A stretch of 64,000 nucleotides of DNA from a phage. A program made the position numbers and the translations under genes. How positions within the stretch are numbered: position 1 is the stretch's first letter; the number at the start of each line of letters is the position of its first letter. Below the pieces are notes generated by a model that was not told the origin of the DNA, ran no database searches, and was given only the letters and a program-made list of their open reading frames with translations. The stretch lies in sequence record PV946933.1; one strand, written 5' to 3'. Below are positions 3,161-63,999 of this stretch, piece after piece.

Positions 3161-5218
3161 ATGGAACTTATTACAGAATTATTTGACGGCGCTTCGGCGC
3201 CGGTTGTTAACTTAAATCCTAAGCATAAAATACCTCAAATTTTTGCTATTCAAGCCGGTGAAGAAAGCGTGCTTCCTGGATTTAGATTTTGTACATACAC
3301 CTCTGGTGGTGATACAAATAAAAACGTTAAGCCAGGCGATAAAATGATGCATATCGTAATGATAGGTGTTAATGAGAAACTATCATTAGTTAAACTTAAA
3401 AACTTGGGTGGAAATCCAATTGGTGTCATTAATGCGGTTTTTGATACTGCTCTTCAGACAATGAAACAATACAAAATTGACGCATGCTTATTCCGCGTAC
3501 TAAAGAGTAAAACAAATGGTGCAGCTCGTCAAATGCAAGTTATTGCCGACCGTTTAGTACGTACTAAAGGAGCAGGTCGATATGTTCTTTTAAAGGAAAT
3601 CTGGGATTACGATAAAAAGTACGCATATATTATGGTTTACCGTAAAAATGCTAATTTAGAAGACATTCCAGGTGTACCTCCTATTTCAACTGAGTTATTC
3701 ACAAAAGTTGAATCAAAGGTTGGTGATGTTTATGTAGATGTTAAAACAGGTAATGCTGTTCCTAAAGCTGTTGCTGTTGCTGCTTCTATTGCTTTAGAAA
3801 ACGATAAGCGCACGGATCAAGCTGTTATTCAGAAAACTAAAATTAGTCGTCGGTTAGCAGCACAAGCTCAATATTCTACTGTCGATGCTTCACTTCAGGG
3901 TGATAGCTTCGCTGCTAAGAAATATCAAGAGTTTGAATCTAAAGTTCCGGTATATAAAGCAGAAGGACCAATGAACTCTGGCGTTATTCAGGTTGGTTCA
4001 AACTTCAGCAAAGGAGCTATCGGTGGTATGAGAAGTGCTTCCCGTTTTAAATCTAGTGATTATGAATTAGAAAGCTTCCGAAATCATATTGCATTGGCTC
4101 ATGCGCGTTTACGTGATCCATCTATCAAGTTACAGAGCGATATATCATATCAAGGTTCTCAAGAATATTTAAAGAATAAAGAATTTTTTGATTATAAAAC
4201 TGATAAAATTTTAAGTGATCTTGCTGACATTAATATTTCTAATAGCTTTGATGTTATTAAGAAAATTGTCAATGATTTAGTTAAAGGTTCTAAAGCCACA
4301 CCAGATGAAAAGGTAGCTATTGTTCAATTTGTCATGAATGGCATTTATAAATTGATTAATGAGTCTGCTTCTCAAGCGTATGAATATGCAAGTACTGAAG
4401 TAACCCCAAAAGGATTAACTCGGGCTGAGTCTGATGTAATTGAAGATTATTGTGCAGATTCATATGTTGAAATGAACTCGTTCCTTTTAGGTAAACCGGA
4501 TTCTACCCGTGAAGAATATATGGAACGAGCTATTAAACACATCGAGACAATGGATTCTGCCTTTGCCAAAGGATCAGTTCTTCCTCCAGGAACTACACTT
4601 TACCGTGGGCAAGAAGTTACCTTTAAAACTTTACGTCATAATATTGAAAATAAAATGTTCTACTTCAAGAACTTCGTATCCACATCGCTTAAACCAAATA
4701 TCTTCGGTGAGTATGGTAAAAACTATATGGCTCTAGATGATTCCAGTACAGTATTTTCTGGTGAAGGAGAAGGTTCAGTTGATGCTGAAGATTTAATGCA
4801 TATGGGTAGTCACTCTGCTTATGCGAATGAAGATGCTGAAACTAGCGTAGGTATGGTAATTAAAGGGGCTGAGCGAATTAAAGTTATCGTTCCAGGTCAT
4901 TTATCAGGATTTCCATCAGAAGCTGAAGTTATTTTACCACGTGGAATTTTGCTGAAGATTAATAAAGTGAGTACGTACATGATGAAAGAAACTGCTTATA
5001 ATAAGTATCTAATCGAAGGCACAATCGTTCCTCCTTCTGAACAATTAGAAGAATCGGTATATGATGGCGACCATCTAATGGAAACTGGTGAAGTTCGTCC
5101 AATGGCTGGATTTAATCAATTCCTTGTAGAAGAATCAAAAGAAGAGGAAAACGAAGTTTCTCAAATCTTGGCTTCTTTGGTTAACATCAACGGAATGTCT
5201 AAAAAGTTCAAGATGTAG
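3161..5218 (+). CDS. alt: Alt-like ADP-ribosyltransferase, copy 2 (685 aa)
   Basis: paralog of copy 1: conserved N-terminal ~230 aa, LYRGQ / FVSTSL / EAEVILPRG motifs; 3-nt intergenic gap. Confidence 0.8.
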   Translation: MELITELFDGASAPVVNLNPKHKIPQIFAIQAGEESVLPGFRFCTYTSGGDTNKNVKPGDKMMHIVMIGVNEKLSLVKLKNLGGNPIGVINAVFDTALQTMKQYKIDACLFRVLKSKTNGAARQMQVIADRLVRTKGAGRYVLLKEIWDYDKKYAYIMVYRKNANLEDIPGVPPISTELFTKVESKVGDVYVDVKTGNAVPKAVAVAASIALENDKRTDQAVIQKTKISRRLAAQAQYSTVDASLQGDSFAAKKYQEFESKVPVYKAEGPMNSGVIQVGSNFSKGAIGGMRSASRFKSSDYELESFRNHIALAHARLRDPSIKLQSDISYQGSQEYLKNKEFFDYKTDKILSDLADINISNSFDVIKKIVNDLVKGSKATPDEKVAIVQFVMNGIYKLINESASQAYEYASTEVTPKGLTRAESDVIEDYCADSYVEMNSFLLGKPDSTREEYMERAIKHIETMDSAFAKGSVLPPGTTLYRGQEVTFKTLRHNIENKMFYFKNFVSTSLKPNIFGEYGKNYMALDDSSTVFSGEGEGSVDAEDLMHMGSHSAYANEDAETSVGMVIKGAERIKVIVPGHLSGFPSEAEVILPRGILLKINKVSTYMMKETAYNKYLIEGTIVPPSEQLEESVYDGDHLMETGEVRPMAGFNQFLVEESKEEENEVSQILASLVNINGMSKKFKM

Positions 5219-6563: not shown

Positions 6564-7657
6564 TAAAAAGTCCCCGCATATAAAGAAGCACGGTTTAACG
6601 TGATAATTTCTCTCATAGTAATCTCAAGAGTAAATGTACTAGGGAGGTTTGGAGCAATAGCTAATCCGTTAAAGTTACCATTAGGTGTTTTATCAAATCT
6701 GATACTCTGTATTTGGCATGGGCCAAATATTTCCGTTTTTCCATCAAACTTAGATGTTGCACCAAAGTTTTTCACCATCCAAATTGTCGGGTTTGAAACT
6801 ACTAGGACGTTAGTTAAACTCGATGTCATTTTCTCAAATAGTGTTTTATTTTTAGCTGCGTCTTCCGGAGATAAAGGTTCAATTAACGTAGAACGATACC
6901 AATCATCTAAATACCCCTTTATTTCAGCAGCATATTGAGATTTGCCCGTTTCACCATAAGAAAAATAGTTAAAATATTGATAGATATTAATAATAGCCAT
7001 TAAATCTTCTGTGGAACGTGGAGTCAAATCCCATGTAAACACTTTAGTTCTATTTTCAGCGCCGCCATACATACTTCTGGCTGTCGTATAAATCTGTTCG
7101 TTATTATCAGCCATTATACCTTGTGTTATACTTTCCAGTGCCCCAAATACTGCAGTTGAAGCAATATTACTTAGCACACCAGTAGCAGTACCTCCGCCTC
7201 TGCTGATAAGACTTTCTTGAACATCATTAAATCTATGTGATGATGTATCAACATCAGATTTAGATCTTGGTAAAAGAATATTTGCAACAGGGGCTTTACT
7301 TATTGTTCCTGAATTATTATCTGATATTAATCCATTTGACAGTTTTGATACTGTATTACTGATAGTGTTTCTGGCTGTACGTAAAATACTCGAAGATGAA
7401 GAAGAGTAGTTAGATCTCATCGATCTAAGACTTCCAGAATCCCTAGATGACATATTGTATGCAGTAAATAATAATCCATTCTTATATAGATCTGTTACCT
7501 GGAAGTCCCCTGTAGTGTCATTACCACTAGCACGCCCAGTTGGAAACTGGGCAGTGTATGTTTTAGTTCCTACTTCTGATTTAGTACTCTGTCCGGCTGA
7601 AATTTTCTCACCGGACTTTTTAATTAAATCAGCAGTTATTTCTTTAACAATTGCCAT
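6563..7657 (-). CDS. 48: baseplate tail-tube cap gp48
   Basis: length 364 aa and order. Confidence 0.8.
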   Translation of the reverse strand: MAIVKEITADLIKKSGEKISAGQSTKSEVGTKTYTAQFPTGRASGNDTTGDFQVTDLYKNGLLFTAYNMSSRDSGSLRSMRSNYSSSSSSILRTARNTISNTVSKLSNGLISDNNSGTISKAPVANILLPRSKSDVDTSSHRFNDVQESLISRGGGTATGVLSNIASTAVFGALESITQGIMADNNEQIYTTARSMYGGAENRTKVFTWDLTPRSTEDLMAIINIYQYFNYFSYGETGKSQYAAEIKGYLDDWYRSTLIEPLSPEDAAKNKTLFEKMTSSLTNVLVVSNPTIWMVKNFGATSKFDGKTEIFGPCQIQSIRFDKTPNGNFNGLAIAPNLPSTFTLEITMREIITLNRASLYAGTF

Positions 7658-29577: not shown

Positions 29578-32718
<3,141 letters not shown>

Positions 32719-61799: not shown

Positions 61800-62117
61800 A
61801 TGAAAACGTTTAAAGAATTTATTGCAGAATCTGCCCAAGGACAACGTGTAGAAGGCGGTTATATCTGGATTGAACAAGTTGAGCCGCCAAGTCGCACTTC
61901 TACAGGTAAATGGAAAATCACTGTTGATGGTCCTGGTGGTAAACGTAGGACTCTTAAAGAAATTAACGGGTACTATGAAGAAGCTCTTTCTGACGCGGGT
62001 ACTTATATGATGCAAATCATGATTAAAAACCCAGAAAATCGTTTTGCGGCTAGAGTTTTCCGCCGTATTGGAAATAAGCTTTATGATGCATATTCTAAAA
62101 ACTTCCCTAAAGAATAA
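61800..62117 (+). CDS. internal-protein-like head protein with capsid-targeting leader (105 aa)
   Basis: N-terminus MKTFKEFIAE; basic body. Confidence 0.6.
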   Translation: MKTFKEFIAESAQGQRVEGGYIWIEQVEPPSRTSTGKWKITVDGPGGKRRTLKEINGYYEEALSDAGTYMMQIMIKNPENRFAARVFRRIGNKLYDAYSKNFPKE

Positions 62118-62752: not shown

Positions 62753-63055
62753 ATGAAAACATTTAAAGAATTTATCACTGAAGCAAAAGCCCCGAAGGTT
62801 TTTCAAATTTGTTCACAAGGAAATTTAGACAAAGAATACGTTGACGCCATCGTAGCAAGCATTGTCAACCAAGGCGTGCAAGTAGATGCAGTTGAATTTA
62901 CCAAAGGCCCTACCTTTAATATCGTTGTATCTAAGGGTTCTTTGGCTAAAATTAAAAAGGCCTGGGGTGTTATGAGAGCTTACCAAGTAGATGATTCTGC
63001 TCCCGGGCCGAAAGTACGAATGAATACCCTTAAGGGAGGCCGTGAATACGTTTAG
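62753..63055 (+). CDS. ipII: internal protein II
   Basis: MKTFKEFITE leader; 100 aa; position. Confidence 0.75.
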   Translation: MKTFKEFITEAKAPKVFQICSQGNLDKEYVDAIVASIVNQGVQVDAVEFTKGPTFNIVVSKGSLAKIKKAWGVMRAYQVDDSAPGPKVRMNTLKGGREYV

Positions 63056-63133
63056 GCCTATTGTCTATACTTATTAGAATATTATACGGACTACCATGTG
63101 CCACGGAATGGCCCAACCTAAAAGAGAAACTAA

Positions 63134-63673
63134 ATGAGAACATTTTTAACTGGTCCTTATCTATCCCTGATGAATGCTTTTACACACCATTCTGATGCTA
63201 GAGTAGAAGAAATTTGTAAAAACGATTATATCCCACCATTTGAAGACTTACTCAAACAGTATTGCACACTTCGACTAGATGGTGGACGTCAATCCGGTAA
63301 ATCAACTGCAATAACTAATTTTGCCGCTAATTGGTTATATGATGGTGGAACAGTTATTGTTCTTTCTAATACTTCAGCTTACGCTAAAATTTCTGCGGGC
63401 CACATTAAAAAAGAGTTTTCTCGTTATTCTAGCGATGATATTCGATTCCGCTTATTTACCGATTCTGTCCGTAGTTTTATCGGTAATAAAGGAAGCAAGT
63501 TCAGAGGTTTATCGCTTTCGCGGATTTTGTATATAATCGATGAGCCTGTTAAATCTCCTGATATGGATAAAATTTACGATATTCATATTGAAACTGTGCA
63601 CCACTGTTGCAATAGTAAATGCTGCATTGGTGGTATTACTCGTCCACAGTTTTTCATAATCGGAATGCAATGA
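63134..63673 (+). CDS. small P-loop NTPase (179 aa)
   Basis: Walker A GGRQSGKST and Walker B ILYIIDEP; four Cys near the C-terminus. Confidence 0.55.
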   Translation: MRTFLTGPYLSLMNAFTHHSDARVEEICKNDYIPPFEDLLKQYCTLRLDGGRQSGKSTAITNFAANWLYDGGTVIVLSNTSAYAKISAGHIKKEFSRYSSDDIRFRLFTDSVRSFIGNKGSKFRGLSLSRILYIIDEPVKSPDMDKIYDIHIETVHHCCNSKCCIGGITRPQFFIIGMQ

Positions 63674-63999
63674 TGACAGACACGCAACTTTTCGAATATC
63701 TTTATTTTTCGCCAAAAACTATTAAAAATAAATTGGTGAATCATTTTGAAATTTTGGCAAATAACAACGTCTTGAGCGAATTTTATCCTAAGCAATACAA
63801 ATTACAAAAAGGCGTATTCAAAGGATGCAGAGTTTTGTGCACTGCTCCTAATGCAAGATTAATGAATAAAATTCCATATTTTACCATGGAATTTATTGAT
63901 GGACCTTTTAAAGGACTAATCACCCAAAGTTTAATGGCATATGATTCTGAGCCATTTTTAATTAAAGAGCAATCTTGGATAAATTTATTTTCTAATTGA
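63670..63999 (+). CDS. hypothetical protein (about 109 aa), translationally coupled to the P-loop gene
   Basis: ATGA start/stop overlap at 63670-63673. Confidence 0.45.
   Translation: MMTDTQLFEYLYFSPKTIKNKLVNHFEILANNNVLSEFYPKQYKLQKGVFKGCRVLCTAPNARLMNKIPYFTMEFIDGPFKGLITQSLMAYDSEPFLIKEQSWINLFSN

Follow-up and report, generated by a model that had tools for sequence, protein, structure and literature searches.

Two small genes with overlapping ends lie on the plus strand near the end of the window, by which we mean the whole 64-kb stretch of phage DNA that was analyzed. They are preceded by an internal-protein-like gene, a spacer, and a hairpin, and the true large terminase is encoded elsewhere in the window. 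The features on which our analysis draws are as follows.

29581-31413, minus strand: gp17, the true large terminase, a 610-aa ORF.
62753-63055, plus strand: a 100-aa internal-protein-like gene, earlier called ipII, which is not an ortholog of T4 ipII.
63056-63095, plus strand: a spacer that separates the internal-protein gene from the hairpin, of the type seen in Klebsiella phage KPV15 and part of a 366-nt KPV15-like stretch.
63096-63114, plus strand: the surviving 3' hairpin (ATGTGCCACGGAATGGCCC) of a conserved element, a single exact match in the window where 0 are expected by chance.
63134-63673, plus strand: vs.8, a 179-aa ORF for a stand-alone RecA-like (ASCE) P-loop domain, a predicted ATPase most probably related to the terminase ATPase.
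63281-63307, plus strand: the Walker A motif (P-loop) GGRQSGKST, Vs.8 residues 50-58, with the Arg-Gln typical of terminases.
63500-63547, plus strand: the FRG motif (R124-G125) and then the Walker B motif ILYIIDEP (D136-E137) of Vs.8.
63599-63625, plus strand: the Cys cluster HHCCNSKCC, Vs.8 residues 156-164, a lineage-specific loop.
63670-63673, plus strand: the ATGA stop/start overlap, a junction of the translational-coupling type.
63670-63999, plus strand: vs.7, a 109-aa ORF that begins MMTDTQ, a small partner gene and ortholog of T4 NP_049731.

The sequence-only reading had described a 179-aa ORF with a Walker A motif, a Walker B motif, and a C-terminal Cys cluster, followed by an ORF of ~109 aa whose start overlaps the stop of the first as ATGA. 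Both ORFs were confirmed at these coordinates. The ATG of the second (63670-63672) overlaps the TGA of the first (63671-63673), and we accept the description of the second as a small partner whose start is coupled. At 93% identity, the 179-aa protein aligns to residues 41-219 of T4 Vs.8 (NP_049732, UniProt P13318), and the 109-aa protein is 98% identical to T4 Vs.7 (NP_049731, P13317). Judging from this identity, the two ORFs are the orthologs of the T4 early genes vs.8 and vs.7, which are both listed in T4 omics tables in the class "early-RNA_early-Protein" (PMC9697503). In tblastn searches, matches were found in 1010 phage records for the first protein and in 930 for the second; furthermore, Vs.8 matches PHROG 1488 (E 7.5e-79, residues 3-179) and Vs.7 matches PHROG 2049 over its full length (E 1.1e-53). 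Because each occurs in about a thousand phage records, matches a PHROG, and is listed among the T4 early proteins, both are real and widespread genes, not chance ORFs. In some GenBank records, the two genes appear as "endoribonuclease RegB domain-containing protein" or "large terminase subunit." Pfam detected no RegB domain in either protein, and we suspect that the RegB label stems from the old UniProt name "...protein in regB-denV intergenic region."

Gene order places the pair where it belongs. In T4, the series is nudE, e, ipIII, ipII, denV, vs.8, vs.7, vs.6, vs.5, vs.4, vs.3, regB, with vs.8 and vs.7 overlapping by 4 nt; in the window it runs nudE-e-ip-ipIII-ip-vs.8-vs.7. A Vs.8 homolog is found at the same place in RB69, KpV477 (Jiaodavirus), STML-198 (Gelderlandvirus), X20 (Winklervirus), and fHe-Yen9-01 (Tegunavirus), and in all five it is followed by a small ORF with an overlapping start. 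The overlap CAATGATGA is retained in T4, RB69, KpV477, and X20, and an equivalent TAATG overlap (CAATAATG) is retained in STML-198 and fHe-Yen9-01. In T4 and the five other genera checked, the vs.8-vs.7 pair lies directly downstream of the e/internal-protein/denV cluster. The synteny check that had been proposed downstream of ipII therefore finds the same pair and the same junction in T4-like genomes, and vs.8 and vs.7 of the window occupy their usual position as the first genes of the early block vs.8-vs.7-vs.6-...-regB.

These observations bear directly on the proposal that the two-gene module is an insertion or replacement that sets this phage apart from T4, with denV perhaps lying just beyond the window. 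Its premises hold insofar as it describes a hyperplastic region and, for T4, a denV gene that comes next after ipII. Moreover, denV is absent between the internal-protein gene and vs.8, as the proposal would have it. Yet T4 itself carries vs.8 and vs.7 at this place, directly after denV, and the pair is not inserted because T4 and its relatives carry it at the same position. Furthermore, tblastn with T4 DenV gave no match anywhere in the window, nor in 13 kb of LYE-01; at 98.3% identity to the window, this phage is the only record spanning the junction among the 30 best matches listed. LYE-01 has the same junction and continues beyond it with a series of genes that matches the T4 vs.6-to-tk block in number, order, and size, so that a denV just past the window is not supported. 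Finally, the missing segment is accounted for by a cassette of the KPV15 type. We give the proposal virtually no chance of being correct. Clear T4 orthologs of known function at the same position had been named as the finding that would overturn it; the orthology and the position are as described, and a known function is not among the findings.

The unusual feature of this locus is the missing UV-repair gene denV, not the gene pair. The ipIII, e, and nudE genes of the window are 94-97% identical to those of T4. The 100-aa ORF, which had been taken for ipII, has no BLASTP match to T4 IPII at E<=1e-3 and is a different protein with the same N-terminal motif, MKTFKEFITEA, that is common to the T4 internal proteins. 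This N-terminal motif is the capsid-targeting sequence. Outside LYE-01, the DNA of the gene is best matched by genes annotated "internal head protein" in Klebsiella phages of the genus Jiaodavirus. Together with the 40-nt spacer and the 19-nt hairpin, the ORF forms a 366-nt stretch with 87% identity to Klebsiella phage KPV15, in which the cassette is flanked by two copies of the hairpin sequence (..GCCAAGGAATGGCCCC). Because ipII and denV are absent while the cassette is 87% identical to KPV15, we read this part of the window as a mosaic in which a KPV15-type internal-protein cassette replaces T4 ipII, denV, and most of the vs.8 leader. The spacer may carry a promoter; no promoter upstream of vs.8 passed a consensus scan, and inspection by eye gave only weak candidates. 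Phage T2, too, is without denV at this place, which fits its classical sensitivity to UV. The source phage and LYE-01 are natural variants without denV and most of the vs.8 leader, and could potentially be used as ready-made deletion controls.

About 150 nt of noncoding DNA upstream of the true vs.8 start is conserved at the nucleotide level across genera in which Vs.8 is only 36-45% identical; in T4, this DNA separates denV from the vs.8 ATG, at about 64,790-64,940 of NC_000866. In the window, the 3' hairpin is all that remains of this element, the rest being absent. Of the six other genera that were aligned, five have the hairpin sequence upstream of vs.8, the X20 version being diverged and longer. 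The core of the element, ~45 nt, comprises a variable flanking helix, ACCUGUAA(U/A/C)AAGGU, CGAGCC(C/A)AAG(N)GCGG, UAA, and the closing helix strand. With blastn, the core was found in 1019 phage records, where it is mostly unannotated. It is essentially absent from bacterial genomes. Among unrelated phages, it also occurs in Vequintavirus APECc02, in Ivi (a 45-kb phage), and in five IMG/VR contigs of 46-70 kb. When Rfam 15 was searched with the element from six related loci, nothing matched, and the matches for the window were no better than chance.

Several observations speak for a structure in this element. Its flanking helix differs by lineage while staying complementary (CCCU/GGGG, CUGG/CCAG, CGCG/CGCG, ACUCA/UGAGU), and the inner hairpin has GCCU/AGGC instead of ACCU/AGGU on two occasions, namely, in the STML-198 group and in the second copy in L021. 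The covariation score over 22 sequences was 0.272, compared to 0.097 +/- 0.020 for shuffled alignments (0 of 500 reach it) and at most 0.067 for slid controls. Folded as single sequences, the motif was not unusually stable (z from -1.2 to +0.65), which speaks against a strong fold. A home-made P1 permutation test was set aside as too permissive. The motif leads, in the majority of T4-like lineages, into a TTTACA box that resembles the early -35 of PeSL cassettes, and T4's own lineage has TAAATACA in place of that box. The element may be either a protein-binding RNA or a terminator-promoter cassette of an elaborate kind.

The leader also bears on where Vs.8 begins. The T4 RefSeq model of vs.8 is 219 aa long, and its extra 40 N-terminal residues, which read through the conserved noncoding element, show no conservation in any of the relatives. 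The vs.8 ATG of the window is preceded by in-frame stops at distances of 3 and 15 nt, and distant homologs all start at the equivalent Met, MK(Y)LT..YL. We take the functional protein to be ~179 aa long because the extension is unconserved, the stops lie directly upstream, and the distant homologs share the Met.

Within these 179 residues, the core motifs of a P-loop NTPase are well preserved. In an alignment of 30 family members, G51, R52, Q53, G55, K56, R113, R124, and G125 are at least 90% conserved, and an Asp-Glu pair after a hydrophobic strand is kept except in the most distant members; among close and medium relatives, R124, G125, and E137 do not vary at all, and D136 is conserved at 90% or more. 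The AF2 model (pLDDT 80.8, pTM 0.82) consists of one five-stranded alpha/beta domain with two N-terminal helices. It ends at the strand of residues 172-176, which is the fifth, with no domain after the RecA-like core. Walker A and Walker B (residues 131-138, nt 63524-63547) are intact within this single RecA-like domain, in keeping with the original description of a minimal P-loop NTPase. Vs.8 is thus a 179-aa stand-alone RecA-like (ASCE) P-loop domain, and from its motifs we predict, with moderate confidence, that it binds and probably hydrolyzes ATP. In the distant homologs P0065, P0067, and P0069, GH[ST] replaces GK[ST] and the Asp-Glu is also lost; these look like a catalytically dead sub-branch, in which case catalysis would not be universal in the family.

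Profile and structure searches, which had been recommended for both proteins, put Vs.8 in PHROG 1488 with a helicase/terminase-like fold and Vs.7 in PHROG 2049. Pfam, NCBIfam, and PADLOC contained no family above threshold for either protein, and profile sequence searches of the PDB with Vs.8 and Vs.7 returned matches at E 0.07 or worse only. The structural matches of the Vs.8 model are SF2 helicase domains and the ATPase domain of T4 gp17; with Foldseek against the PDB, there were weak matches to helicases, RecD, and the packaging ATPases of P74-26 and phi29. In BFVD, its closest relatives are small uncharacterized proteins of T4-like and jumbo phages.

The family is small and variably preserved. 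An exhaustive profile search with Vs.8, which covered 1.84 billion representative proteins, returned 51 proteins of 57-259 aa, most of them ~130-185 aa. Full-length Vs.8 with invariant catalytic residues occurs in ~1000 genomes of at least seven genera, down to 36% identity, and truncated copies (P0013, P0017, P0019, P0023, P0024) are also present in the databases. In T2, vs.8 is broken by two 2-nt deletions into three frames, and vs.7 is intact. Because T2 vs.8 is frameshifted, the gene appears to be dispensable there, that is, accessory and nonessential.

The Cys cluster is a more local feature. The cysteines of HHCCNSKCC are absent from relatives of less than ~60% identity, and residues 160-168 are the only segment of the Vs.8 model with pLDDT <50. 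A zinc or other metal site was rejected on these grounds, the cysteines being unconserved in the family and the loop being of low confidence. A Pfam conotoxin match on the cluster (19.6 bits, compared to a cutoff of 23.2) was dismissed as a composition artifact.

Several lines of evidence connect Vs.8 to the terminase ATPase. The protein bears the marks of that family, namely, a Walker A motif of the form RQxGK[ST], an RG ~10 residues before Walker B, and the Walker B Asp-Glu. When aligned to the gp17 of the window with hhalign (E 0.0027, with a probability of only 11%), the GGRQSGKST region falls opposite LSRQLGKTT of gp17, YIIDEP opposite IYIDEC, and RG opposite VRG. Across the family, 17 of 30 members match the terminase PHROG 2 at E<=1e-3, and half (15 of 30) match Pfam Terminase_6N at E<=0.1, none reaching the gathering score and the best being at E 1.4e-4. 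Other results are less specific. Vs.8 itself scores 15.2 bits against Terminase_6N (PF03237), below the gathering cutoff of 22; no terminase was returned at E<=1e-3 by the exhaustive profile search; and in both fold searches with Vs.8, helicase domains reach scores as good as those of terminases. Most probably, Vs.8 is an ancient side branch of the terminase ATPase. It is not itself a terminase: a TerL protein has ~400-700 aa and an RNase H-like nuclease, whereas Vs.8 ends at residue 179. Both vs.8 and vs.7 are already in the catalog of T4 genes, and a paper of August 2026 reported the likeness of Vs.8 to terminase, describing vs.8 as an uncharacterized, ATPase-like protein with Walker A and B motifs and as a sequence and structural homolog of the T4 terminase ATPase (PMC13601566).

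A relationship of this kind could also arise if the pair were the decaying, functionless remnant of a duplicated terminase, with vs.8 as the ATPase part and vs.7 as the part that follows. The terminase-like motifs, the T2 pseudogene, and the truncated database copies would all be expected from such decay. However, intact Vs.8 keeps its invariant catalytic residues across ~1000 genomes and at least seven genera, and both proteins belong to the early-protein class in T4. Vs.7 is without similarity to gp17 (hhalign probability 0.7%), for which reason we rejected it as the next piece of a split terminase. A remnant is extremely improbable on this evidence.

Less can be said of Vs.7. It has no family, PDB, or defense-library match in Pfam, NCBIfam, PADLOC, or the PDB profile search, and our literature search found no paper on it. 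The AF2 model, made from a four-sequence alignment, has a pLDDT of only 52.9 and is unusable; usable relatives are few in the protein database, one reason being that Vs.7 and Vs.8 are filed there in one 90% cluster. The conserved core spans roughly residues 40-95 and contains two GxFKG-like motifs. A KOW-like reading of this repeat was dropped, as Pfam gave no support at E<=1. The partners in X20 and fHe-Yen9-01 retain only the core of Vs.7, and the downstream partner in STML-198 looks unrelated to it. Because the vs.7 start overlaps the vs.8 stop, the two proteins are probably made together.

Two small genes with overlapping stop and start in a hyperplastic accessory region might be thought to form a toxin-antitoxin-like or exclusion module, as the sequence-only reading had suggested. 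Two findings weigh against this in particular. Vs.3 to Vs.8 were each cloned singly in Escherichia coli under the vs.8 promoter, while a neighboring fragment, Part II, could not be cloned (PMC13243611; Nat Commun, April 2026). In addition, T2 has lost vs.8 and kept vs.7, and therefore the genes are not mutually dependent. PADLOC likewise gave nothing above noise for Vs.8 or Vs.7. We regard a module of this type as very improbable.

A role in counterdefense is a different matter. Because it adjoins two proven anti-defense sponges, the pair is a reasonable candidate for a counterdefense screen. The neighboring vs.3 encodes the anti-Thoeris sponge TadIV-1, and the neighboring vs.4 is the anti-CBASS sponge Acb2. 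In work on type IV Thoeris, the system was blocked only by Vs.3 (TadIV-1), not by Vs.8 or Vs.7 (PMC13243611). A screen with AlphaFold 3, in which proteins of T4 and PhiC120 were paired with EcAvs2, an immune sensor, picked up vs.8 (PMC13601566; Nat Commun, 3 August 2026). The PhiC120 Vs.8 is 88% identical to that of the window. Coexpression of vs.8 with EcAvs2 was toxic, the AF3 ipTM was 0.84, and the authors speculated that vs.8 may be an anti-defense protein that the sensor has learned to detect (PMC13601566).

These findings could be accommodated if Vs.8 were a nonessential, accessory look-alike of the terminase ATPase domain that engages host proteins recognizing the terminase-ATPase fold, of which EcAvs2 is the published example. 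Vs.8 would then be a counterdefense factor, or else a factor sensed by defense systems, and Vs.7 would be its binding partner or modulator. We put forward this function for Vs.8, as a mimic with Vs.7 as its putative partner, as a tentative possibility. An anti-defense role for the pair is conjecture, and a role as a decoy is conjectural because the triggering of EcAvs2 harms the phage. The retention of vs.7 in T2, where vs.8 is broken, and the apparently unrelated partner in STML-198 both argue against the partner role of Vs.7.

A two-part version of terminase mimicry can be imagined, in which Vs.8, made minutes before the real terminase, would show a terminase-ATPase surface to Avs1-3 or Upx, while Vs.7 would bind Vs.8 or the sensor, such that the sensor is occupied without oligomerizing. 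If this were true, then the published toxicity of Vs.8 alone with EcAvs2 would reflect the absence of Vs.7. Such a joint counterdefense by Vs.8 and Vs.7 is conjectural, and we think it quite improbable. Alternatively, Vs.8 could be an accessory ATPase of the housekeeping type that acts on phage nucleic acid, whether by loading in the manner of a helicase or by assisting recombination, packaging, or RNA metabolism. In that case, Vs.8 would have no role in host defense, and the EcAvs2 response would be an incidental cross-reaction with a terminase-like fold. Against this stand the single RecA domain of 179 aa, with neither a second domain nor recognizable nucleic-acid-binding motifs, the tiny family of 51 representatives among 1.84 billion proteins, and the dispensability of vs.8 in T2. 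We consider this alternative unlikely. Taking the locus as a whole, we find it probable that the genes are vs.8 and vs.7, that Vs.8 is terminase-like with Vs.7 as its putative partner, and that the DNA upstream is a mosaic of the KPV15 type.

The closest known counterpart of the pair is in T4, where Vs.8 and Vs.7 share with the window their order, the ATGA overlap, and the location upstream of vs.6...regB. The window differs from T4 in having neither denV nor a T4-type ipII upstream and in its in-frame stops, which make the 40-aa N-terminal extension impossible. The element upstream of vs.8 resembles the PeSL promoter-terminator cassettes (PMC2839356, PMC4122927) in combining stem-loops with a TTTACA box and in flanking a shuffled gene cassette as a direct repeat, as seen in KPV15. 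At ~150 nt, however, it is much longer than a PeSL, and its 45-nt core is near-invariant across genera and is also present in unrelated phages, a pattern that does not agree with published descriptions of PeSLs. With type II toxin-antitoxin pairs, vs.8 and vs.7 share small size and coupled translation, but each was cloned alone without reported difficulty, neither matches a toxin or antitoxin family, and T2 keeps one partner. The N-terminal domain of T4 gp17 (PDB 2o0h) is RecA-like and ASCE like Vs.8, with SRQLGKT corresponding to GRQSGKS and with the RG and catalytic Glu in common. Unlike the large terminase subunit, Vs.8 has only 179 aa, lacks the nuclease and any second domain, and is the product of an early gene, whereas terminase is late. 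Finally, Vs.8 can be compared with Ksap1 and Ksap2, the non-terminase activators of Avs2. These are separately named and belong to other phage groups (Dhillonvirus, Stephanstirmvirinae), and what is reported for vs.8 is toxicity upon coexpression and an AF3 model, not activation during infection. Nevertheless, like vs.8, they are small, lineage restricted, and terminase-ATPase-like in fold, and they trigger an Avs2 sensor (PMC13601566). Judged from its model, Vs.8 appears to have the structural similarity to the terminase ATPase core by which non-terminase activators of Avs2 are recognized.

In about 1019 phage records, vs.8 is preceded by a non-coding element roughly 150 nt long. It was located in T4 and in related loci (L-numbered), including phages outside the T4-like group, as follows.

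Occurrences of the vs.8-upstream element and the T4 gene-model extension that bears on it
T4 (L002), about 6796-6945, minus strand: element
RB69 (L003), 3830-4000: element
KpV477 (L004), 2330-2494: element
STML-198 (L005), X20 (L006), fHe-Yen9-01 (L007) and further loci L008-L039: element
Outside the T4-likes, L040 1493-1544, L041 1490-1541 and L044-L048: element
T4 (L002), 6794-6913, corresponding to about 64793-64912 of NC_000866: 40-codon extension of the vs.8 model

The unrelated phages that carry the same element are the Vequintavirus APECc02, the 45-kb phage Ivi, and IMG/VR contigs of 46-70 kb. A 45-nt core is nearly invariant and reads, in order, helix, ACCUGUAAUAAGGU, CGAGCCCAAGUGCGG, UAA, and helix. 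The flanking helix covaries by lineage, with a covariation score of 0.272 vs 0.097 when shuffled (0/500), and the element has ordinary stability when single sequences are folded. No entry for it was found in Rfam 15. In the window, the 3' hairpin at 63096-63114 is all that remains of the element, the rest having been lost.

The start of the T4 RefSeq model of vs.8 (219 aa) is probably misplaced by 40 codons in the upstream direction, since the added codons run through the conserved non-coding element. Many other vs.8 gene calls are longer by about 10 to 16 residues, and some of them begin at an ATG inside the hairpin (MCHGMAQ...). In the window, a 13-codon ORF occupies 63096-63137 (ATG TGC CAC GGA ATG GCC CAA CCT AAA AGA GAA ACT AAA TGA); its initial 19 nt are the conserved hairpin, and it terminates in an ATGA that overlaps the vs.8 start. 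This ORF may be a leader peptide or may have arisen by chance.

The gene itself is broken in phage T2 (L049, PV648363), where two separate 2-nt deletions within 1501-2036 split vs.8 into three reading frames. The adjacent vs.7 is intact, and the inner hairpin of the upstream motif has a G-to-U change. T2 is a viable phage with a natural vs.8 knock-out. T2 also has no denV at this position, as is the case for KpV477 and STML-198. Furthermore, denV, which encodes the UV-repair endonuclease V, was found neither in the 64-kb window nor in the 13 kb of LYE-01 (L001), a stretch that runs beyond the window end.

Among distant Vs.8 homologs in the protein collection, three (P0065, P0067, and P0069) carry GH[ST] where the Walker A motif has GK[ST], and their Walker B Asp-Glu is gone as well; they look like a branch within the family that is catalytically inactive. 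Both Vs.8 and Vs.7 fall in one 90%-identity cluster (that of P0001, with 1051 members), which probably explains why a word-indexed search returned few Vs.7 relatives. Several GenBank records among the tblastn matches (H2, H9, H15, H21, H22, H37, H82, and H88) label vs.8 or vs.7 as "endoribonuclease RegB domain-containing protein," "endoribonuclease," or "large terminase subunit," and no RegB domain was detectable in either protein. We suspect that the RegB label goes back to the wording "...in regB-denV intergenic region" of a former UniProt name.

Upstream of the hairpin, the ORF that the sequence-only reading had named ipII is not an ortholog of T4 ipII, as BLASTP returned no match. Instead, window positions 62753-63114, comprising this ORF, its spacer, and the hairpin, match an internal-protein cassette of the Klebsiella Jiaodavirus KPV15 (L022) with 87% identity across 366 nt. 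Two copies of the hairpin sequence flank the KPV15 cassette, which suggests that the cassette was swapped by recombination at this repeat. Separately, e and ipIII are separated by an additional ORF of 105 aa (61800-62117) that carries MKTFKEFIAE, the N-terminal motif of the internal proteins. T4 has no gene at this place, and BLASTP matched the ORF to neither IPII nor IPIII of T4. As for the element ahead of vs.8, it may be a protein-binding RNA or a terminator-promoter cassette resembling the PeSLs, the promoter-terminator stem-loop cassettes of T4-type phages.
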